A stretch of DNA of 64,000 nucleotides. Origin: an uncultured bacterium. Lineage in GTDB: Bacteria; Actinomycetota; Acidimicrobiia; Acidimicrobiales; VFJN01. Positions 2,039 to 62,118 of this stretch are shown here, in pieces. The notes under the pieces were generated by a model. The model had not been told where the DNA came from. It saw only the letters and a program-made list of their open reading frames with translations, and ran no database searches. Position numbers and translations under genes: made by a program. Position 1 is the stretch's first letter; the number at the start of each line of letters is the position of its first letter. The stretch lies in the NCBI GenBank assembly GCA_963813485.1, contig CAWEZE010000011.1, positions 96,178-160,177 of the forward strand, given 5' to 3'.

Positions 2039-2179
2039 CTAAGGACCTGAGCGGATAGGGCGGTCCGCATGGCCTCATGCGTGGTCAGTGGTCCGGTGAC
2101 CGCCAGCTCGAAGAGCTCGCGCCGCGGCAGCGCTGACCACCGTGAGCCAGGACGGACTGCCTATCCGCTCGCTCCTTAG
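2039..2179. mobile_element. MITE-like element, copy 1 (141 bp, terminal inverted repeats, TA flanks)
   Basis: Left end is cTA-AGGACCTGAGCGGATAGG and right end is CCTATCCGCTCGCTCCT-TAg. The interior (cagcgctgaccaccgtga...) is shared with the copies at 17334, 31735 and 35925. It lies between the lgt 3' end and the region upstream of ligB. Confidence 0.8.
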
Positions 2180-10612: not shown

Positions 10613-11113
10613 ACCGGTGTGGCAGTGCGGCAAGCCGGCGGACAGGCTGCGTCGTTAAGAGCCTGTGGTCCTCGCGACGAACCAGCCAGCCCCGGATGAC
10701 TTCGGGCGGGGGTAGGGGCTTCAGCTCAACGTGGATGCCCGTCCGGGGTCTGGGTGACGGTACCAGGCCCTGCAGGCCGGTGACGTCGACCGGATGGTCT
10801 AGGTGCCAACACCTGCAACGACTGACTCCTGGCTGCATGCACGGGCTAGTGAACGGTGACAGGCCGGGCGGGTCCTCGGGGGGCAGGTAAGCAACCCAGC
10901 CTTCGGAGTCGAGGGTGACGGTGTTGATCCACTCGAGCCGATGATTCGCGAAGGCGAGCTCCGAGCGAAGCATCACGGGCCGGACATGCGCGGCCACCGT
11001 GCGTCCCACAGAAGCGCTGCAACTGAGGGACGCACGGTGGCCGAGAACGAGCCTGTCCTATCCGGGCTCAGGGGGTCCTTGCCGCCGCTCGCTTTCGAGG
11101 GCCTCGTCGGGCC

Positions 11114-16285: not shown

Positions 16286-16332
16286 GGCCTCAAGGTAGAG
16301 GGCCGAGTCGGTCGTAGACCGACGCCGTCAGC

Positions 16333-16528
16333 GGTGGCGGGTGGGGGTGGGCTGGCGGTGCTCGGCCTGGTGCTCGATCGCCAGGGCGTGGTCGCACGGA
16401 TACGGCGTCAGCAACGGCGCCACCGCGTCGCCCAGCTGGCCCGGCGGTGGCTCGTCGGCGAGCTCGAGCGTGCGCAGGCGCTCGGCGGCGGCGAACCCAC
16501 AGCTCCAGCCCGACCCCCACCCGCCACC
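16333..16528. repeat. Inverted 23/24-nt G/C-rich repeat pair flanking a 149-bp spacer
   Basis: 16333-16355 is GGTGGCGGGTGGGGGTGGGCTGG. Its reverse complement matches 16505-16528, CCAGCCCGACCCCCACCCGCCACC, with one indel. The right-hand arm and about 30 nt beyond it recur at 25067-25123 inside xseA. Confidence 0.7.
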
Positions 16529-16565
16529 CCATAATGGCGTTGGTTTTCGACCGACTCGGGAGCCC

Positions 16566-16607: not shown

Positions 16608-17333
16608 ATGCAGCCCGCTCCATCCATCGCGCCGGAGCAGACGATTCCCACCGACGGGGCCCGGCCCACGGCCGTAGCCACCGTTTCGCGCGTGGCCATC
16701 GCTGCCGTCGGTGCCTACGTCGGTGCCCAGGTGATCGCAGACATCACCAGCGTGAAGATCGGGTCGACGTTCGGTCGGGCCGTCGACATGGGCACTTTCG
16801 TCTATCCGATCACGTTCACCCTGCGCGACGTGGTCCACAAGGCCCTGGGAAGGCGGGCCGCCCGCACGCTGATCGTCACCGCCGCCGTGGTCAACCTGTT
16901 CATGGCGGTCTACCTGCAGTGGGTGGCGCGGGTGCCGAGCCACGAGAGCTACCCCCTGGGCGACGAGTTCCGCGCGGTGCTCGGCCCGCTGTGGCGCATC
17001 GTGGTGGCATCGATCATCGCCGAGGTGATCAGCGAGCTGCTCGACACCGAGGTGTACCACTGGTTCGTGCGGCGCGTGACCACTCGCTTCCAGTGGGCAC
17101 GGGTCGCCGTCAGCAATGCCGTGAGCATCCCCGTGGACAATGCGATCTTCGCCATCGGGGCATTCGGCTCGCTGCCGCTGTTGACCGACCACGCCCTGAC
17201 GCTGCCGTGGGCTGCGGTCTGGGACATCTTCGTCGTCAACCTGATGGTCAAGGGGTTGGTGTCGGCCGCGAGCCTGCCGCTGATCTACGTGTCGCCGGAC
17301 CGAGACTGGCGCAACGACCCCGACAATGCTTGA
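16608..17333 (+). CDS. yhhQ: Queuosine precursor transporter (YhhQ/DUF165, VUT family)
   Basis: From the ATG at 16608, a 241-aa polytopic membrane protein with YPITFTLRDVVHK...NAVSIPVDNAIF motifs typical of YhhQ. The upstream riboswitch supports this start; the track ORF starts too early (16341). Confidence 0.8.
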   Translation: MQPAPSIAPEQTIPTDGARPTAVATVSRVAIAAVGAYVGAQVIADITSVKIGSTFGRAVDMGTFVYPITFTLRDVVHKALGRRAARTLIVTAAVVNLFMAVYLQWVARVPSHESYPLGDEFRAVLGPLWRIVVASIIAEVISELLDTEVYHWFVRRVTTRFQWARVAVSNAVSIPVDNAIFAIGAFGSLPLLTDHALTLPWAAVWDIFVVNLMVKGLVSAASLPLIYVSPDRDWRNDPDNA

Positions 17334-17476
17334 GAGGCCCGGCGGATAGGCGGCTCCGAAGGGCACCCCGGCGTTGGAATTTGTCGCTGGGCCGCAGCTC
17401 AGCAGCTTGGCCTCCAGGCAACGCTGACCACCGCGAGCCCAGAGAACGTGCCCTATTTCGCCCACGCTCTGAGGCG
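17334..17476. mobile_element. MITE-like element, copy 5 (degenerate ends)
   Basis: It fills the whole gap between the yhhQ stop and the tetR stop. The interior aligns with copy 4 (..ggaatttg..cagctca.cagcttgg..cgctgaccaccg.ga..cagag.acgtgcc). The ends are decayed (GGCGGATAGG / CCTATTTCGCC). Confidence 0.6.
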
Positions 17477-23785: not shown

Positions 23786-25331
23786 CAGCTGCTCCTCGCG
23801 CCTCCGTCACCGTGCTGCGGATGCCACCGTTGGCCAACGTCGTCGTGAGTACGTCGCCCTGCGCCACGTCTGTCGCCGAGCGCAGGACCCGGCCCTCGGC
23901 GTCGCGGGTGATCGACCAGCCCCGGGCCAGCGTGCGGGCCGGATCGAGCGCCCGCACCTGCGCCTCGAGCCGGTCGAGGTCGTGCGCGGCCGCCGCGACC
24001 AGCCGGGGCGGGCGATGCGCCAGGCGCTGACCGACGACCGCGAGCGCCAACTCGCGGCCGCGCAGGTGACCCCGTGCGCTCGACGATGTCCGGCCGGCCG
24101 AGCGCTCGAGCAGCCGAGCCGAGCGGTCGAGGGCGCCGGTCGCTGCCCGTCGTACCCGCTGGGGCCGGGCGGCGAGGTCGCGGTCGGCGGCGGCCAACCC
24201 CTGGCGGGTCGCAACCGCCACGTGGCGTCCACACGCGCTCAGCCGCGCGGCCTCGGCCCGCAGCCGGCGCCGCACCGCGGCCGCGATGTCCTGCCACACC
24301 TCGACCGTGCGGCGCTCGAAGGCCCGGACGTCGTCGACGACCGCCTGAGCGCAAGCGGTCGGCGTCTTGTAGGCCCCGTGCGCGACCTCGTCGGCGATCG
24401 TGCGGTCGATGTCGTGGCCGATGCCGGTCAGCACCGGCACATCGAGGCCGGCGATGGTTCGGGCGATGAGCTCGCTGTCGAAGGCCGCCAGGTCGGTGGT
24501 CGCGCCCCGACCCCGCACCAGCAGCACCGCGTCGACGCCCCGGGCGGCAACGGCCCCCAGCCCCCACGCCACCGACCGCGCCGCTTCGTACCCCTGCACG
24601 CGCACGTCGGCTCGGAACACCCTGAAGCCAATGCCCGAGCGACGCAGCTCGTCGAGCACGTCGTGCTCGGCGGCGCTGCCGGCGCTGGTGACCAGTCCCA
24701 ACCGCAGGGGCAGGAGCGGCGGTGGTAGCTCGGCCTGCCCCGCGAGCAGCCCCTCGGCATCTAGGCGCCGGAGCAGGCGCTCGCGATCGGCGGCCAGGCG
24801 CCCGAGCGTGAAGTCGGGATCGATGTCGGACATCTGGAGCTGCAGCCGCCCGCCCCGTGGCCAATACCCCGGCCGGCCCCGGACCCTGACCTCCGTACCG
24901 TCGACCATGCGCACGGCGTTGCCCCCGGCGCCCAGCCGGGCGTTGACCTGGCGCCGGGCGTCGTCGAACAAGACCACCGGCAGGGTGGCCAGCGGTGGCT
25001 TGGACAGGTCGCCGCCCGGTGCCGGCTCGATCAGGTCGAACCAGACGATCCGGCCCGACCCCCACCCTCCAGCCCGACCCCCACCCGCCGCCCCGTGGCG
25101 GCGTCGGCCTGCGGCCGACTCATCGGCCGTTGTCGGTGGGGTCGGGCTGTCGCCCGGCACGCCGCTTCCGCGGCCCCGGCTGAGGTTGCGGATCACGCCT
25201 CGGACCCACACCTCCTCGGGGAACGTTCGGCGCAGAGCCACCGCCACCGCCTCACCCACCTCGGCGACCGACCAGGTGGGCTCGTCGGGGTCGTCCCACA
25301 GGGTCTGGGGCGTCGGGCGGGCCTTCGGCAC
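23778..25331 (-). CDS. xseA: Exodeoxyribonuclease VII large subunit, with an insertion of about 45 aa in the N-terminal OB fold
   Basis: OB fold (VWVRGVIRNLSR ... IVWFDLIE), catalytic core (LGLVTSAGSAAEHDV..RVQGYEAA..LLVRGRGATTDLAAFD) and a coiled C-terminus. The insert GRGSGVPGDSPTPPTTADESAAGRRRHGAAGGGRAGGWGSG coincides with the repeat at 25052-25149. Confidence 0.85.
   Translation of the reverse strand: MPKARPTPQTLWDDPDEPTWSVAEVGEAVAVALRRTFPEEVWVRGVIRNLSRGRGSGVPGDSPTPPTTADESAAGRRRHGAAGGGRAGGWGSGRIVWFDLIEPAPGGDLSKPPLATLPVVLFDDARRQVNARLGAGGNAVRMVDGTEVRVRGRPGYWPRGGRLQLQMSDIDPDFTLGRLAADRERLLRRLDAEGLLAGQAELPPPLLPLRLGLVTSAGSAAEHDVLDELRRSGIGFRVFRADVRVQGYEAARSVAWGLGAVAARGVDAVLLVRGRGATTDLAAFDSELIARTIAGLDVPVLTGIGHDIDRTIADEVAHGAYKTPTACAQAVVDDVRAFERRTVEVWQDIAAAVRRRLRAEAARLSACGRHVAVATRQGLAAADRDLAARPQRVRRAATGALDRSARLLERSAGRTSSSARGHLRGRELALAVVGQRLAHRPPRLVAAAAHDLDRLEAQVRALDPARTLARGWSITRDAEGRVLRSATDVAQGDVLTTTLANGGIRSTVTEARGAADD
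25052..25149. repeat. G/C-rich palindromic repeat element embedded in-frame in xseA
   Basis: 25052-25068 and 25069-25089 are tandem GCCCGACCCCCACCC units. 25134-25149 (CGGTGGGGTCGGGCTG) is the inverted partner, with a spacer of about 45 nt. 25067-25123 resembles 16503-16557, including 23 consecutive identical nt. Confidence 0.65.
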
Positions 25332-30612: not shown

Positions 30613-31167
30613 TTATGGGCCGTGGGCCTGCTTGTCCGCCCCGCTCGTAACCTGTGCCGGCTGGGTCGTTGCGCTCGCCTTCACGATGGCCTCGATCCCG
30701 CTGATTCGGTCCTCTAGCTCGGCTCTTCTTCGATCGCTCAATAGCGACGCACCCGCGGCAATCAGCGCTGCGAGCACGACGCCTAGGAACGGCAGGAACG
30801 GAACCCACCAGGTGTCCTCCGACGGAGCGGTGACAGGCAGGATCTCGCCGTCGATTTTCACGAACTCAGGCGCGTCGTCGCCGGCGATGTCATAGACGGC
30901 GACCCCGGGGGGGCGGGCGCTCGCAGGAGGGTCTCGGTCGTCGTCGGTCTGGAAGGTCAAGATGCCGGCGATGAACGTTGCCACGAGAAGAGTCCCGGCG
31001 ATGATTCCGCCGACCAACCTCCGACGGTGCTGCCGCTTCCGCTCACGCTCGAGGCGTTCCTTCGCGTCCGCCAGGTAGTCGGTGAAGGGGGCGGAAATGC
31101 CCTGTACCAGAGCCGCCGTGGCCGCCGCCATCGCCCCAAGGTCCGTCACAGAGCCCACCGCCAACAC
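30613..31167 (-). CDS. Hypothetical membrane protein (2 TM)
   Basis: 184-aa ORF in a lower-GC patch. Two hydrophobic helices (LVGGIIAGTLLVATFIAGIL; WWVPFLPFLGVVLAALIAAGA) and a charged coiled segment. Confidence 0.45.
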   Translation of the reverse strand: MLAVGSVTDLGAMAAATAALVQGISAPFTDYLADAKERLERERKRQHRRRLVGGIIAGTLLVATFIAGILTFQTDDDRDPPASARPPGVAVYDIAGDDAPEFVKIDGEILPVTAPSEDTWWVPFLPFLGVVLAALIAAGASLLSDRRRAELEDRISGIEAIVKASATTQPAQVTSGADKQAHGP

Positions 31168-31224
31168 CCGTCCACCGGGGCGGCAGGTTAGCTGGGCGCT
31201 CGAGCCCCCAGTTCGTGTGAAAGC

Positions 31225-31300
31225 CTAAGGACCTGAGCGGATAGGCCACGTCCTCTCTCGGCTCATGGTGGGGGTTCACCACCTGACCTTCAGCTGTCAG
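31225..31300. mobile_element. MITE-like element, partial copy (one terminus only)
   Basis: cTA-AGGACCTGAGCGGATAGGCCACGTCCTCT... matches the alpha arm of copies 3 and 4. No second terminal repeat was found within 150 nt. Confidence 0.55.
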
Positions 31301-31460
31301 CAGGCCCGCCAACGGCTGTCCCGCACCCGGTGCTCGCTACATCACAGCTAATGGGACGGCGTTACCCCGTACGGGTCGGCGCCACGGCGGGCGGAGCCAC
31401 CTCCGCGCCTCGTAGGCCGAGGGGTGGACATAGCGTGCAGTCGGGACGGGGAGGTGCAGG

Positions 31461-31712
31461 GTGGTGGCGGAACCTGAGGCGGGCATGCAGCGACTTGTGA
31501 AACGCGTCGTGGGTTGGGTGATCTTGGCGGCTCTGGTCACGTGGGTGATCGTGTTGTTTTGGGCTGCCACCGGTGGATCCGCATTCGACTTCGGTCGGGT
31601 GTGGGTATGGACTGCGGTCGTGCTTCTGGGTGCTGCGGCCAGGATGACAATCGTGGCGTGGCTCGTCGACGTCACCGACCGGCGTGCGGACGAACCGACC
31701 TATCGGATCTGA
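31461..31712 (+). CDS. Hypothetical small membrane protein (2 TM)
   Basis: An 83-aa ORF between two MITE copies: VVGWVILAALVTWVIVLFWAA and VWVWTAVVLLGAAARMTIVAWLV. Start may be the internal ATG (MQRL, 31485). Confidence 0.35.
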   Translation: MVAEPEAGMQRLVKRVVGWVILAALVTWVIVLFWAATGGSAFDFGRVWVWTAVVLLGAAARMTIVAWLVDVTDRRADEPTYRI

Positions 31713-31734
31713 CCTACGCCCCGAGCTGCGTCCC

Positions 31735-31873
31735 CTAAGGACGTGAGCGGATAGGCACGTAGTCTTGACTCGCGGTGGTCAGCGCTGCCGGGGACCCGAG
31801 CTGTTGAGCTGGCGGTCGACCGCCAAATTCCACGCGTAGGCTGCACGAACCGCCCTATCCGCTCGGCTCCTAG
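31735..31873. mobile_element. MITE-like element, copy 3 (139 bp)
   Basis: cTA-AGGACGTGAGCGGATAGG ... CCCTATCCGCTCGGCTCC-TAg. It is near-identical in reverse orientation to copy 4. Confidence 0.85.
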
Positions 31874-32231
31874 CACGTCGATCGGCTGGCCGGAGCAGAC
31901 CTGGATCCGCGTCACCTGAGGCGACGCCGGTCCCAGGCGTCGCCGTCCCGCTGCTGGCTGGCTAACGGGCGTCCGGTTCACTGGCCGGCGATACAGCGAC
32001 GATGGCGGCGGGTCATCTCGCGGGCGGACATGAGAGGGCGGACATGACACAGGAACTCGCGCGATACGTACTGCTGGCGTCGGTCTCGGCGACGGTGGCC
32101 GGCGTGGTGTTCGAGGGGGTGCGGCGGCGGTTTGCGGGCACGCGGCTCGACCGGCAGTTCCGTGAACAGCACCCATAGCCGCCGCGGGACGAGGCCCGAT
32201 GCCACCGGCCGGTTCTACGCCGGCCCGAGTG

Positions 32232-32411
32232 TCAGAGCACGAACCCGGGGCCGAAGTGGTCGACGAGCGCGAGGACCAGGACACCTATGACGGCGACGCG
32301 CGCGACCACCGGCAGGCTCTTAACCAAGTCGGTGATCGTCGGCAGCCGCTTGCTGCGGACCGCCACGAACTCGTAGATCGCGGCGATGAGGCCGATGATG
32401 GCAACGGTCAC
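32232..32411 (-). CDS. Hypothetical small membrane protein (59 aa)
   Basis: Not in the track (under 60 aa). GTG at 32411, then TVAIIGLIAAIYEFVAVRSKRLPTITDLVKSLPVVARVAVIGVLVLALVDHFGPGFVL. High third-position GC. It lies immediately downstream of the Ddn-like gene. Confidence 0.4.
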   Translation of the reverse strand: MTVAIIGLIAAIYEFVAVRSKRLPTITDLVKSLPVVARVAVIGVLVLALVDHFGPGFVL

Positions 32412-32438
32412 CAGCGCCTCCCCGCTCAGCCCCGGACG

Positions 32439-32870
32439 TCAAGACACCGGCTCGAGCAGCACCAGCGGGATCTCGCGGTCGGTCTTGGTCTGATAGTCGC
32501 CGTAGCCCTTGTACCTGCCGACGACCTTCGGCCACAGCCGGGCCCGTTCGTCGGGATCGGCGATGCGCGCCCGCATCGGCCGCTTCGGTTCACGTCCGAT
32601 CGCCACGTCGACATCCGGGTTGTCGCGGAGGTTGAGGAACCAGGCCGGGTGGTGAGGGTCGCCGCCACGGGAGGCGACCACCACGATGGCGTCGCCGTCT
32701 TGCACGGGCGAGGTCAACAGCACCGTGTGGGGCCGGCCGCTCTTACGCCCCGTGGTTGTGAGCTCGATCACCGGCATGTTGGCGACGTCCCACCCGAACC
32801 GGCCCCCGCTGAGCTTCTGCATGGTCCGGTGGATGGTGTTGGCCCCCCTGAAGAACACGTCGCTCGGCAT
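32439..32870 (-). CDS. Nitroreductase-family deazaflavin (F420)-dependent oxidoreductase (Ddn-like)
   Basis: 143 aa with MPVIELTTTGRKSGRPHTVLL..VVASRGGDPHHPAWFLNLRDNP..RLWPKVV..Y..YQ.KTDREIPLVLLEP, the signature of the family. Confidence 0.85.
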   Translation of the reverse strand: MPSDVFFRGANTIHRTMQKLSGGRFGWDVANMPVIELTTTGRKSGRPHTVLLTSPVQDGDAIVVVASRGGDPHHPAWFLNLRDNPDVDVAIGREPKRPMRARIADPDERARLWPKVVGRYKGYGDYQTKTDREIPLVLLEPVS

Positions 32871-32910
32871 GGCCGGACATTAGGCGTCTCGCGCCACGCA
32901 AACTGGCGAC

Positions 32911-33714
32911 GTGACCGAACGCGACGACACCGTGCTCGAGGACTACCGGGCGCTCAACGATCCCGAGCGGCGGCGGGAGCTGGAACGACGGGGCGGGTTC
33001 TTCGTGGTGGAGGGCGCGCTGGCGCTGGAGGCGCTGCTCGATTCCGGCTTCCCCATCCGTTCGGTGCTCGCCGCGGCGCGCAAGGCGGAGCGGGTGCGTG
33101 CCCTGGTCGGCGGCCGGGCGCCGGTGGTGGTGCGGTCGGACGACGAGGTCGAAGCGATCGCCGGCTTCCCCTTCCACCGGGGCGTGCTGGCGGCCGCCGA
33201 CCGGCGACCGCTGCCTGGGGTCGCCGACGTGCTGGAGGGCGCCGACCTCATCGTCATCGCCGAGGGGCTGACCGACCATGAGAACGTCGGGGCGCTGTTC
33301 CGCAACGCCGCCGCATTCGGTGCGGACGCGGTGTTGCTCGATCCCGCAACCGCCGACCCGCTCTACCGGCGGAGCGTGCGGGTGTCGCTGGGCCATGTGC
33401 TACGGGTGCCTTGGACCCGGGTGCCCACCTGGCCGGGTGGACTCGGTGAGCTGCGGCAGCGCCGGTTCGAGCTCTTGGCCCTGACCCCAGCGCCCCACGC
33501 CGTGCCGATCGACGCCGTCGCGCTCGACGTCGCCGCCCGCAGGCCGAAGGTCGCGCTGCTCGTCGGCGCCGAAGGCGCCGGGCTCAGCGACGCCGCCCTC
33601 GCGGCATGCGACCGACGGGTACGCATCCCCATCGCCCCTGCGGTCGACTCGCTGAACGTGGCCACTGCCGCCGCCGTCGCCTTACACCGGCTCAGTAGAT
33701 TCGATCCGGCCTGA
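32911..33714 (+). CDS. TrmH/SpoU family RNA 2'-O-methyltransferase
   Basis: 267 aa with ENVGALFRNAAAFG, LLVGAEGAGLS and RIPIAPAVDSLNVATAAAVALH (SPOUT knot motifs). Confidence 0.85.
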   Translation: MTERDDTVLEDYRALNDPERRRELERRGGFFVVEGALALEALLDSGFPIRSVLAAARKAERVRALVGGRAPVVVRSDDEVEAIAGFPFHRGVLAAADRRPLPGVADVLEGADLIVIAEGLTDHENVGALFRNAAAFGADAVLLDPATADPLYRRSVRVSLGHVLRVPWTRVPTWPGGLGELRQRRFELLALTPAPHAVPIDAVALDVAARRPKVALLVGAEGAGLSDAALAACDRRVRIPIAPAVDSLNVATAAAVALHRLSRFDPA

Positions 33715-34235
33715 TGCCCGCCCTGACCGGACCCGCCCTCACCACCGCCCTCCTCCTCGCGTTCGCCGGGGCAACTAAGGCTGTCGACCCGGCGATGACG
33801 GTGGGGGCGCTGCGCGCGCTCGGGCTCCCGTCGTCGCGGACCCTGGTACGAGTGGGTGCCGCGGCCGAGCTGCTCGTCGGCCTCTTGGCGGCGACCGCCG
33901 GCTGGGCGTTGGTCTGGTGGCTCGTCGCCGCCAGCTACCTGGCGTTCGCTGCGTTCGTCCTGGCCGCTATGCGGGCGGGAACGATGGTGGGCTCGTGCGG
34001 CTGCTTCGGACGCAAGGACACCCCTCCCCATCCGATCCACGTCGTGGTCAACGTCGCCTCGGCGGCAACGGCTGCCGCCGCCGCAGTTCGGGATGTGGGT
34101 GCGCCGCTCGACGCAATCGCCGACGCCCCGGGACGCGGGTGGGTCGTCGCCGGGTTGAGCGTGCTGGCGGTTGTCCTCCTGTACGGCGTCCTCGTCGACC
34201 TTCCGAGGGCGCTGCGCCAACCTCGACGTTCCTGA
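33714..34235 (+). CDS. MauE/DoxX-family redox-associated membrane protein
   Basis: 173 aa, four TM helices, with the conserved GSCGCFG motif. Confidence 0.7.
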   Translation: MPALTGPALTTALLLAFAGATKAVDPAMTVGALRALGLPSSRTLVRVGAAAELLVGLLAATAGWALVWWLVAASYLAFAAFVLAAMRAGTMVGSCGCFGRKDTPPHPIHVVVNVASAATAAAAAVRDVGAPLDAIADAPGRGWVVAGLSVLAVVLLYGVLVDLPRALRQPRRS

Positions 34236-34272
34236 GGCGCCTTTTGCGTTGCCGGCGGGCACCATTGGGGAC

Positions 34273-36018
34273 ATGGCCGCCACCCATGAGGTCACCAATC
34301 AGCCGCCCCCGCTCGAGGGCTACGACGTCTTCGGCGCCGATGTCGCCCTGGTCGAGGCGGTCGAGCGGGAGGGCGCCGGCTGGGCCGTCGACGACCTGCA
34401 CGCACTCGGCCGCCTGGCCGGGTCGCCCGAAGCCATCGGCTGGGGCTTCGACGCCAACCGTCACCCGCCCGAGTTGCGCACCCACGACCGCTACGGGCAT
34501 CGCATCGACGAGGTCGCCTACCACCCCGCCTACCACGAGCTCATGCAGGTTGCGGTGTCCCACGGCCTGCACGGCGCGCCGTGGGCCGTCGACCAGCCGG
34601 GTGCCCACGTGGCACGGGCGGCCGGCTTCGTGACCTGGTCCCAGGTCGACACCGGGCACGGCTGCCCGATCTCCATGACCTACTCGATCGTGCCCGCACT
34701 CCGGACCCAGCCCGACCTGGCCGCCGAGTGGGAGCCCCGCCTGGTGGCACGGGCCTACGACCCACGCAACGTCGCGGCCCGCGAGAAGCCCGGCGTCCTC
34801 GCCGGCATGGGCATGACCGAGAAGCAGGGGGGATCCGACGTCCGGGCCAACACCACCCGCGCCCAGCGGGTCGCCGGGGGCGGCGACGTCGACGGCGACA
34901 CGTGGGGGCTGACCGGGCACAAGTGGTTCTGCTCGGCGCCGATGTCGGACGTGTTCCTGATGCTGGCGCAGGCCCCGGGCGGGCTGACGTGCTTCCTCGT
35001 GCCCCGCTGGCTCCCCGATGGCGGGCGCAACTCGGGGCTCCGGATCATGCGACTGAAGGACAAGCTCGGCAACCGGTCCAACGCGTCCAGCGAGATCGAG
35101 CTGGATGGGGCTGTCGCGTGGCGAGTCGGCGAGGAGGGCCGGGGCGTCCGCACCATCATCGACATGGTCGCCCACACCCGTCTGGACTGCGTGCTCGGGG
35201 CGACCGCCACCATGCGGCAGGCCACCGCCCAGGCGCTGCACCACGCGGCCCATCGCTCGGCCTTCGGCTCGACGTTGGTCGACCAGCCGCTCATGCGGGT
35301 GGTGCTCGCGGACCTGGCGGTGGAGTCCGAGGCCGCGACGGTGACGGCGCTGCGCCTGGCCCGTGCGTTCGACGAGGCCGCCCGCGGTGACGAGGACGCC
35401 GACGCGCTGAGGCGCATCGCCACCGCCGTGGGCAAGTACTGGACCTGCAAGCGCCAGCCCACCCACGTCGGCGAGTCGCTCGAATGCCTGGGCGGGAACG
35501 GCTACGTCGAGGAATCGATCATGCCCCGGCTGTTCCGCGAGAGCCCGCTCAACGGCATCTGGGAGGGCTCGGGCAACGTGATCTGCCTGGACGTGCTGCG
35601 GGCGATGGCCCGGGAGCCGGCGGCGCTGGAGGCGTTCCTCGCAGAGATCGACGCCGCCCGCGGTGCGGACCAGCGATTGGACGGCGCCGTGGCCCGCGTG
35701 CGCCACGAGCTCGGGGACCTGGTCGGCATCGAGTCCCGCGCCCGGCGGGTCGTGGAGGCCATGGCCCTGGCGCTCCAGGGCAGCCTGCTGGTGCGGTACG
35801 GGCATCCGGCCGTCGCCGAGGCCTTCTGCGCCTCGCGGCTGACCGGCGAGGAGGGGCTGGCCCTGGGCACGCTGCCGTCGGGGCTCGATCTCTCCACGAT
35901 CATCGAGCGCGCACCCGAAAGTGGCTTAGGAGCCGAGCGGATAGGGCGGTTGGTGCAGCCGACGTGGGAATTTGGCGGTCGACTACCAGCTCAACAGCTT
36001 GGCTCCCGGCAGCGCTGA
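34273..36018 (+). CDS. AidB-like acyl-CoA dehydrogenase; the last 31 codons are read from a MITE
   Basis: From the ATG at 34273: MAATHEVTNQPPPLEGYDVFGAD.., TEKQGGSDV, WFCSAPMSD and CLGGNGYVEES, which is the AidB/ACAD layout. From 35925 the frame continues into MITE copy 4 (..GLGAERIGRLVQPTWEFGG..) and stops at 36016-36018 inside it. Confidence 0.85.
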   Translation: MAATHEVTNQPPPLEGYDVFGADVALVEAVEREGAGWAVDDLHALGRLAGSPEAIGWGFDANRHPPELRTHDRYGHRIDEVAYHPAYHELMQVAVSHGLHGAPWAVDQPGAHVARAAGFVTWSQVDTGHGCPISMTYSIVPALRTQPDLAAEWEPRLVARAYDPRNVAAREKPGVLAGMGMTEKQGGSDVRANTTRAQRVAGGGDVDGDTWGLTGHKWFCSAPMSDVFLMLAQAPGGLTCFLVPRWLPDGGRNSGLRIMRLKDKLGNRSNASSEIELDGAVAWRVGEEGRGVRTIIDMVAHTRLDCVLGATATMRQATAQALHHAAHRSAFGSTLVDQPLMRVVLADLAVESEAATVTALRLARAFDEAARGDEDADALRRIATAVGKYWTCKRQPTHVGESLECLGGNGYVEESIMPRLFRESPLNGIWEGSGNVICLDVLRAMAREPAALEAFLAEIDAARGADQRLDGAVARVRHELGDLVGIESRARRVVEAMALALQGSLLVRYGHPAVAEAFCASRLTGEEGLALGTLPSGLDLSTIIERAPESGLGAERIGRLVQPTWEFGGRLPAQQLGSRQR

Positions 36019-36060
36019 CCACCGTGAACCAGAGGACGTGCCTATCCGCTCAGGTCCTAG
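35925..36060. mobile_element. MITE-like element, copy 4 (136 bp)
   Basis: tTA-GGAGCCGAGCGGATAGGG ... GCCTATCCGCTCAGGTCC-TAg. It overlaps the 3' end of the AidB-like CDS. Confidence 0.85.
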
Positions 36061-36095
36061 CCGTTTGGGGCACAAGGTGCGCTGGTCGGTCAGGC

Positions 36096-37244
36096 CTAGA
36101 GCCGCTCGATGATGGTCACGTTGGCCTGGCCCCCGCCCTCGCACATCGTCTGCAGACCCCAGCGCCCGCCGCGGCGCTCCAGCTCGTGGAGCAGGGTGGT
36201 CATCAGGCGGGCGCCGGTGGCGCCGAGCGGGTGGCCGAGGGCGATGGCGCCGCCGTTGACGTTGACCCTGGCCATGTCGGCGCCCGCCTCCTGTGCCCAG
36301 GCGATGACCACCGAGGCGAAGGCCTCGTTGATCTCGACCAGGTCGATGTCGTCGAGGCGCATGCCGGTCTTGGCCAGCGCGTGGGCGGTCGCGGGGATCG
36401 GCGCCGTCAGCATCCACACCGGGTCGTCCGCCCGCACCGAGAGGTGGTGGATCCGGGCCCGAGGCGAGAGCCCGTGGTCCGCCAGCCCCCGCTCGTTCAC
36501 GATCAGCAGCGCAGCCGAGGCGTCGGAGATCTGCGACGAGCACGCCGCGGTCACCCGTCCGCCCTCGGTCAGGACCGGCAGCGAGCGGATCTTGCCCCAG
36601 TCGGGCTCCCGGGGGCCCTCGTCGGTGGTGCACTCGCCCAGCGGCACGATCTCGGCGTCGAAGCGACCCTCGTCGCGAGCCCGGATGGCCCGGGTGTGCG
36701 ACTCGACGGCGAACGCCTCCATCTCGTCGCGCCCGATGTCCCACTTCCCGGCGATCAACTCCGCAGACCGGAACTGGCTCACCTCCTGCGTGCCGTAGCG
36801 GGCGACCCATCCCGGCGACCCGGTGAACGGGTCGTCGAACCCCAACGCCTGGCCGGCGGTCATGGCCGACGAGATGGGGATCTGCGACATCTGCTGCACG
36901 CCGCCGGCCACGACCACGTCCATCGTCCCGGACAGGACCGCCTGGGCGGCGAAGTGGATCGCCTGCTGCGACGATCCGCACTGGCGGTCGACGGTGGTGC
37001 CCGGCACGTGCTCGGGGAGCCCGGCCGCCAGCCAACAGGTGCGGGCGATGTCGCCGGCCTGGCCGCCGATGGTGTCGACGCAGCCGAACACCACGTCTTC
37101 CACCGCCGCCGGGTCGATGCCCGTGCGCTCGACCAGGGCCGTCAGGCTGTGCGCACCCAGGTCGGCGGGGTGGACCAGGGCCAGCCCACCCCCGCGCTTG
37201 CCGACCGGCGTGCGAACTGCGTCGACGATGTAGGCCTCGGTCAT
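36096..37244 (-). CDS. Thiolase (acetyl-CoA acyltransferase, FadA6-like)
   Basis: From the ATG at 37244 (383 aa): DRQCGSSQQ, GHPLGATGAR and CEGGGQA. It overlaps the upstream gene's stop by 4 nt. Confidence 0.9.
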   Translation of the reverse strand: MTEAYIVDAVRTPVGKRGGGLALVHPADLGAHSLTALVERTGIDPAAVEDVVFGCVDTIGGQAGDIARTCWLAAGLPEHVPGTTVDRQCGSSQQAIHFAAQAVLSGTMDVVVAGGVQQMSQIPISSAMTAGQALGFDDPFTGSPGWVARYGTQEVSQFRSAELIAGKWDIGRDEMEAFAVESHTRAIRARDEGRFDAEIVPLGECTTDEGPREPDWGKIRSLPVLTEGGRVTAACSSQISDASAALLIVNERGLADHGLSPRARIHHLSVRADDPVWMLTAPIPATAHALAKTGMRLDDIDLVEINEAFASVVIAWAQEAGADMARVNVNGGAIALGHPLGATGARLMTTLLHELERRGGRWGLQTMCEGGGQANVTIIERL

Positions 37245-54854: not shown

Positions 54855-54921
54855 GCCAGGACAGTACGGGTCGGTCGCAGACCGACGCCATCAAGGGGCG
54901 GCGGGCGGGGGTCGGGCTGGA

Positions 54922-62028: not shown

Positions 62029-62118
62029 TGGCGGAAGGTGTGGGATTCGAACCCACGGTGACCCGGAGGCCACAACGGCTTTCGAGGCCGCCCCATTCGT
62101 CCGCTCTGGCAACCTTCC
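62029..62118 (-). tRNA. tRNA-Ser (anticodon CGA)
   Basis: 90 nt. Acceptor GGAAGGT/ACCTTCC, 3-bp D stem, anticodon stem GCGGC/GCCGT with loop CU-CGA-AA, long variable arm, T-arm GTGGG-TTCGAAT-CCCAC, and an encoded CCA. Confidence 0.92.

Follow-up and report, generated by a model that had tools for sequence, protein, structure and literature searches.

The window analysed here is a 64,000-nt stretch of DNA with a G+C content of ~70%, and the homologues of its proteins are source-labelled Acidimicrobiales. We identified in it four complete copies (129–136 bp) and one truncated end of a family of short repeats, which lie between genes or at gene 3' ends as the initial annotation had stated. The family is real: the 11-mer GAGCGGATAGG has seven exact occurrences in the window versus 1.0 expected, the 18-mer AGGASCYGAGCGGATAGG has six at up to three mismatches versus 0.2 expected, and a search profile made from 16 copies and run on the window matched at 31870–31739 (− strand, E 6e-35), 35929–36057 (+ strand, E 5e-33), 2044–2172 (+ strand, E 2e-22), 17337–17456 (+ strand, E 3e-16), and 31271–31229 (− strand, E 9e-4), the last being a 43-nt end fragment that covers model positions 94–133.

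One type 1 copy (35929–36057, + strand, 129 bp) is located between the convergent genes of an AidB-like acyl-CoA dehydrogenase and a thiolase (Pfam) and has the left end GGAGCCGAGCGGATAGG and the right end CCTATCCGCTCAGGTCC, with TA flanks at 35927–35928 and 36058–36059 as delimited by empty-site comparison. The other type 1 copy (31739–31870, − strand, 132 bp) is inverted relative to it and is flanked by TAA (31736–31738) and TAG (31871–31873). A divergent copy (2043–2175, + strand, 133 bp) sits between the 3' end of an Lgt-like gene and the 5' end of an ATP-dependent DNA ligase gene (Pfam LGT, DNA_ligase_A). Its ends are GGACCTGAGCGGATAGG and CCTATCCGCTCG-CTCC, the second with a 1-nt deletion, and its flanks are TAA (2040–2042) and TTA (2176–2178). 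The fourth copy (17334–17469, + strand, 136 bp) is from a separate subfamily, has the degenerate ends GAGGCCCGGCGGATAGG and CCTATTTCGCCCACGCTC, and is neighboured by genes for Vut_1, a queuosine precursor transporter, and TetR (Pfam). The left TGA of its target duplication (17331–17333, + strand) is the stop codon of Vut_1, as the empty site shows, and the right TGA is at 17470–17472. The truncated copy (31229–31271, − strand) comprises a GGACCT-type terminal repeat and ~25 nt of neighbouring interior, is preceded by TAA (31226–31228), and otherwise adjoins unrelated sequence. A weak right-end-like sequence, CCTATCGGATCTGACC, is present at ~31699–31714 and could pair with the 31229 end into an element of ~486 bp.

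All four full copies that had been annotated thus stand, but with the revised boundaries given above, which exclude the flanks, and a half copy proposed at 31225–31300 is a real end that is confined to the 43 nt from 31229 to 31271. The clustering of three ends within 31.2–36.1 kb holds as well. A proposed solo end at 11056–11082 was rejected, as it has one CGGATAGG 8-mer, of which ~1.1 chance matches are expected, and no profile match. The terminal inverted repeat, given before as 20 nt, is 17 nt long (GGASCYGAGCGGATAGG). The three well-preserved copies show no variation in the inner 11 nt of this repeat, and the outer 6 nt are poorly complementary between the two ends. The interior blocks GGAATTTGG, CAGCTCAACAGCT, and CAGCGCTGACCACCGTG are conserved in the window copies, as had been noted, and also in the copies of other genomes. 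No transposase is encoded in the window (best E 0.47 in tblastn with the partner transposase described below), in agreement with the earlier view of the repeats as non-autonomous MITEs, for which a length below ~300 bp is a further mark that the copies share.

Three of the four complete copies are absent from the orthologous sites in relatives with 89–94% protein identity. Vut_1 and TetR genes are spaced by 3–9 bp, with no insert, in five relatives' loci (L115–L119; Vut_1 92–94% identical). L119 reads GCC TGA GGGCTACGCG, and the window reads GCT TGA, the 136-bp element, and TGA GGCGGGCTACTCG, by which a 3-bp TGA duplication is proven for copy 17334. At the site of copy 35929, loci L111–L114 (AidB-like protein 91–93% identical) have no insert, and their sequence between the genes of the acyl-CoA dehydrogenase and the thiolase is ...GTCGGC TAG CCG...; the window reads GTGGCT TA, the element, and TA GCCG. 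This is read most simply as a 2-bp duplication of TA within CTTAG, or alternatively as a TTA duplication that is missing one base. The TA and the first G of this copy make a TAG that aligns with the stop codon of the AidB-like genes of relatives. At the third site, the acidic tail of the Lgt-like protein ends at ...GCGAC(C/T) TAG in L120–L125 and L127 (metagenome; ligase 89–93% identical), followed by the ligase upstream region, and the window reads, on the Lgt-like gene strand, GCGAC TAA, the element, and TTA GCCGG. A duplicated TTA in CTTAG that later acquired one substitution would account for this. The substitution removed the rebuilt stop codon, so that ORF 2075–2434 (− strand) runs ~34 codons into copy 2043. 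No empty site was obtained for copy 31739, where synteny with the relatives breaks left of 32223. In total, 460 kb of relatives' loci were fetched by protein homology, and these contained no MITE copy and no transposase.

Two ORFs near the copies deviate from their expected frames. The AidB-like ORF leaves the frame of its orthologues at 'gcacccgaaa' (~35905–35915) by a 1-nt frameshift and extends 30 codons into the MITE, and in the Lgt-like ORF the acidic tail gives way to an Arg-rich frame at ~2440–2460. Both are probable frameshifts, which could be long-read homopolymer errors or real mutations. The segment 30000–32223, which carries the truncated end 31229 and copy 31739, is missing from the syntenic loci of relatives, none of its ORFs matches Pfam, and it may have been acquired or belong to a variable part of the genome.

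A scan with the 18-mer terminal repeat in one genome per species yielded at least 110 loci, which among the matches listed were mostly from Acidimicrobiia MAGs and, viewed in register, fell into three classes: short elements, transposase-bearing loci, and chance matches. Short elements of 48–167 bp with identical ends and several unrelated interiors were found in ~30 loci among the matches listed; many of these are alignable to the window copies, and almost all derive from Acidimicrobiia MAGs. In the second class, a conserved coding region on the other strand adjoins the same terminus. About 25 of the at least 110 loci are chance 18-mer matches (TGT[GA]CTTCATCGTGCAGGAGCCGAGCGGATAGG) in a conserved protein-coding gene of unrelated phyla, presumably the glycine-cleavage P-protein gene, and were set aside.

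The terminal repeat bounds insertion sequences (ISs) of 958–975 bp in other Acidimicrobiia genomes. One such IS (L010, 4763–5734, 972 bp) has the structure TTA-GGACCCGAGCGGATAGG...CCTATCCGCGCGAGTCC-TTA and holds a single ORF of 285 aa that matches Pfam DDE_Tnp_1 PF01609 (3e-14) and DUF4096 PF13340 (3e-11) and scores 142.5 bits against NCBIfam NF033580 'IS5 family transposase' (cutoff 110). The motifs ALDGS, LDRGYD, and WIVEAT at residues 113, 189, and 233 are, we assume, the D, D, and E regions of the transposase. This transposase is encoded in at least 32 of the at least 110 loci. Five loci in one MAG, CAWFWE (MFD04944.bin.2.69), have transposase copies that are 99.6–100% identical, an indication that the IS has been active recently. 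Among annotated plasmid homologues, the closest are 'IS5 family transposases' of Pseudonocardia, Streptomyces, and Corynebacterium with at most 46% identity, so that this is a distinct IS. Among the matches listed, the terminal repeat was found on IS5-family transposase genes only, and no IS630-type gene carried it. On this basis we conclude that the repeats are, with high probability, non-autonomous MITEs of an IS5-family insertion sequence. MITE DNA had no match in the plasmid collection, and none of the papers listed in literature searches on MITEs in Acidimicrobiia or on CTNAG-targeting elements was relevant. The MITE/IS pair thus appears undescribed, as the initial annotation had proposed for the repeats, while elements of this kind, and the mechanism that they probably use, are well known.

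Local alignments of MITE and IS interiors were at shuffle level, with L023 as a marginal case (31 versus a null maximum of 25). As the interiors are without significant similarity, the MITEs are not simple deletion derivatives of the sampled IS, and this origin was rejected for type 1. The left ends GGAGCC and GAGGCC differ from most IS ends in the outer 6 nt. A short motif, TGACCA..CCACCG, is common to MITE and IS interiors and is a lead only. All sampled IS copies (L010, L019, L023, L046, L050, L069, and L086) have a conserved subterminal GACCATCCACCGG near one terminal repeat, which the best-conserved MITE interior block, TGACCACCG, resembles by eye with a 3–4-nt gap. The resemblance could reflect a shared binding site or a chance match.

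Pairing of the ends in the listed loci and tabulation of their flanks gave 48 complete elements. Perfect 3-bp duplications are present in 25 of these 48 elements among the matches listed, and all 25 are TNA (TAA 12, TTA 9, and TGA 4 with all elements read on the + strand; in element orientation, the TGA class consists of TGA/TGA and TCA/TCA). The duplications are preceded by C in 20 and followed by G in 19 of the 25 cases, which defines the target as the palindrome C|TNA|G. Among the remaining listed elements, five of the 48 have flanks that differ at the central base only and three fit a 2-bp TA only. The full-length IS copies among the matches listed have a perfect TTA or TAA duplication in 11 of 16 cases. 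The three well-preserved window copies lack a perfect 3-bp duplication and have the flanks TTA/TA-, TAA/TAG, and TAA/TTA. Pristine full-length IS copies in L024, L083, and L088 have TAA on one side and TTA, its reverse complement, on the other, a flank pattern also seen at copy 2043. An IS-mediated inversion between two copies would give such flanks.

The window holds at least three subfamilies. The type 1 copies 35929 and 31739 are 86% identical to each other, and copy 2043 is divergent from them. Copy 17334, formerly regarded as decayed, is closest to a separate subfamily in other genomes (71–72% identity to L039b, L055, and L048b) and has 60% identity to the type 1 copies. Copy 31739 is 94% identical to a copy from a different species-level MAG (L077) versus 86% to its window neighbour 35929, which points to several lineages in one genome, interspecies transfer, or both. 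Among the matches listed, the same termini enclose different interiors of 48, 81, 113, 147, and 160 bp. Unlike interiors between the same ends are predicted if a transposase recognises the ends, and are not expected of an RNA gene. Two MITE copies of different subfamilies almost abut in L048 (3422–3555 and 3560–3689) and lie within 3 kb in L039 (791–923 and 3711–3835), which suggests local hopping or nested insertion.

In all three window copies for which this was testable, the element entered at the stop codon of the gene upstream. Across the listed loci, with crude GC3-supported ORFs as gene calls, 14 of 34 short elements have their junction on a stop codon, and inclusion of the two window copies placed there by empty sites raises this to 16 of 34. 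This proportion (~40%) compares with 38 of 530 free CTNAG sites (7%; Fisher p 2e-7 to 3e-9); none of the 16 full-length IS copies is on a stop codon. The pentamer CTNAG contains TAA, TGA, or TAG on one or both strands. In the mechanism that we propose, the transposase would bind the MITE terminal repeats in trans and insert the element at CTNAG with a 3-nt staggered cut, and the duplication, or TTA and the first G of the element, would recreate a stop codon. The upstream gene would then stay intact and the insertion would survive selection, which would explain the pile-up of copies at gene 3' ends. Target choice and purifying selection would together confine surviving MITEs to harmless stop-codon sites, and the enrichment could be due to survivorship alone, with no property of the element involved. 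Because the window has no transposase, mobilisation would have to be in trans, by a transposase encoded elsewhere in the genome or since lost. The copies are most probably neutral passengers, for which no host function needs to be invoked. At two gene ends, secondary changes would let the reading frames continue into copies 35929 and 2043, namely a 1-nt frameshift shortly before the AidB-like stop and a TTA-to-TAA change in the duplication beside copy 2043.

Rfam searches of the whole window at gathering thresholds gave nothing but one tRNA gene (62032–62118, − strand, 87 nt), and a search of 31150–36150 at E up to 1 gave no match. RNAalifold of 21 copies predicted terminus-terminus pairing on one strand and a terminus-internal helix on the other, with covariation terms of -0.3 and -0.4 kcal/mol. 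Folds of single sequences had z-scores of -1.1, -4.0 (one strand of copy 35929), -2.5, and -1.6, and a scan for promoter and terminator consensus sequences inside the copies found none. Complementarity also links the left terminus, over its outer 10 nt, with an internal site (columns 3–12 versus 76–86 of alignment A3; 35929–35938 versus ~36000–36009 in the window), and two pairs covary between subfamilies (GGAGCC/GGCTCC versus GAGGCC/GGCCTC). Across the alignment, 92% of cells are paired and none of 500 shuffles reaches the observed value, although the relatedness of the sequences makes this control overstate the significance. Between the two true termini, by contrast, most of the outer 6 nt do not pair. 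By eye, the internal site matches the terminal repeat at 13 of 17 positions and looks like a degenerate right end, so the element may be a composite that retains a fossil end or a second one for binding. The terminus/internal complementarity may reflect either such a composite element or a selected single-strand structure, and the IS5-MITE model does not require this pairing.

The initial annotation had assigned the repeats to IS630/Tc1-mariner transposases, with insertion at TA within CTAG and duplication of TA. Copy 35929 is exactly of the form TA-element-TA where relatives have GGC TAG CCG, 3 of the 48 listed elements are compatible with a 2-bp TA duplication only, and some relatives have CCTAG at the site of copy 2043, all of which would suit this assignment. 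Copy 35929 is the only window copy that fits a clean 2-bp TA, and TA does not bracket every intact copy as had been claimed, since copy 17334 is bracketed by TGA/TGA and its empty site confirms a duplication without TA. For this copy at least, the empty-site result is thus the one that the initial annotation had itself named as refuting its reading. As a general signature the TA-only model is ruled out by the TGA and TCA duplications, which are among the 25 perfect duplications in the listed matches that are, without exception, 3-bp TNA. Every transposase beside the terminal repeat in the listed matches is of the IS5 family (DDE_Tnp_1 and DUF4096, NF033580), and the IS630-type transposase with the same terminal repeats that had been anticipated was not among them. 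Moreover, 2-bp duplications also occur in the IS5 family, in the IS427 group (PMC3281130), so that TA alone does not point to IS630. The IS630 reading is therefore largely refuted already, and we consider it very improbable. Slightly less improbable, yet still very unlikely, is that the ~130-nt unit is a structured RNA gene or a cis-regulatory RNA such as a 3'-UTR stabiliser or terminator, conserved for its structure and not transposed, an alternative also named in the initial annotation. Such an RNA would agree with interior blocks that are conserved across species, the location of all copies at gene ends, the better-than-shuffled fold of one strand of copy 35929, and the complementarity of the left terminus with the internal site, including its covarying pairs. 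It is contradicted by presence and absence at orthologous sites with target duplications, copies that face either way with respect to adjacent genes, subfamilies that have the terminal repeats in common but not their interiors, which are unrelated, and the same termini on transposase-encoding ISs. The structural evidence also speaks against it: Rfam gave no match at either threshold, RNAalifold found terminal pairing only on either strand with minimal covariation terms, the remaining z-scores are weak (-1.1 to -2.5), the copies have no promoter-like or terminator-like site, and the covariation is a two-state character among related subfamilies, in which relatedness can yield such a signal without structure.

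Repeats that are short, have palindromic ends, and lie between genes, often convergent ones, also recall REP-like or host-maintained palindromic sequences spread by a RAYT/IS200-type enzyme or by recombination without a DDE transposase. The clear terminal inverted repeats and target duplications oppose this origin, since REPs are not known to make terminal inverted repeats with target duplications, as do termini identical to those of an IS5-family element; a Y1 or RAYT gene was not seen nearby in a non-exhaustive look. We regard it as the least probable of the explanations considered. The stop-codon association and the internal complementarity would both find a place in a further, unlikely but less remote reading, in which the element seeks stop codons and its conserved interior is either a selected 3'-UTR RNA or DNA structure or a second, internal transposase-binding end. 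The CTNAG target and the terminal G could then rebuild the stop, and the element could colonise ORF ends across Acidimicrobiia. The interior, with its terminus/internal complementarity and invariant GCTGACCACCGTG, could act as a stabiliser, terminator, or protein-binding site.

Elements of the IS1031 and IS427 groups are typically ~0.8–1.0 kb long, and those of the IS427 group have two frameshifted ORFs. These groups, with ISLxx6 and IS1237 of Leifsonia (PMC2516522) and the Paracoccus elements (PMC3281130) as examples, are the closest known systems to the IS5-family MITE/IS pair. They resemble the partner IS in its small size (958–975 bp), its terminal repeats of ~17 bp, and its DDE_Tnp_1 and DUF4096 transposase. 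Within the IS5 family, the IS1031 group typically has a single ORF and a 3-nt target, traits that were also reported for the actinobacterial ISLxx6 (PMC2516522) and that the partner IS shares. The IS427-group elements captured in Paracoccus make 2-bp duplications (PMC3281130), as occasionally seen in the present family. In its length and single 285-aa ORF the partner IS fits the IS1031-like pattern, and it may belong to either group. Unlike IS1031/IS427 elements, the elements in the window are non-autonomous derivatives and not an IS itself. Tourist-like MITEs of eukaryotes, which make 3-bp T-N-A type duplications, are likewise short, non-autonomous, and mobilised in trans by an IS5-related transposase, that of PIF/Harbinger. 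Harbinger elements share one phylogeny with the IS5 family and duplicate 3 bp, with 0, 2, or 3 bp in their relatives (PMC12730594). The present family differs from Tourist/Harbinger in its bacterial hosts, its single transposase protein without a Myb-like partner, and its unrelated terminal sequences. Bacterial MITEs derived from IS630 include Nezha of cyanobacteria and RUP of Streptococcus pneumoniae, and Correia elements are known from Neisseria. All three are of similar size, have terminal inverted repeats, lie between genes, and lack a transposase; in contrast to their TA duplication and, where known, IS630-type partner, the present family has an IS5 partner and mainly TNA duplications.

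Reassignment from IS630 to IS5 changes where the partner transposase is to be sought and which target signature is to be expected. The pair appears to be the first described MITE and IS that are widespread in uncultured Acidimicrobiia, a class with few cultured members and little mobile-element annotation. In the window, the copies explain three apparent gene-end anomalies in which ORFs run past the stop codons of their orthologues. More generally, they are useful as markers for strain-level comparison and for assembly breaks in MAGs, and the stop-codon association would be an example of how target choice and selection confine a transposon to harmless sites.

The IS or MITE was also found on contigs of MAGs labelled Bifidobacterium breve, Rhodobacterales, Solirubrobacterales, Streptosporangiaceae, Geodermatophilaceae, Chloroflexi, and Limnocylindrales (L022, L031, L077, L079, L083, L097, and L109), through either horizontal transfer or mis-binning of Acidimicrobiia contigs. 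A second, unrelated intergenic repeat family is present in the window at 16303–16347, 16504–16559, 25056–25121, and 54867–54921. Its consensus is roughly CCGAGTCGGTCGYAGACCGACGCC..GGCGGGYGGGGGTCGGGCTGGA and includes the hairpin GTCGGTC-NNN-GACCGAC, and two of its arms, separated by 167 nt, lie in inverted orientation to each other directly upstream of Vut_1.
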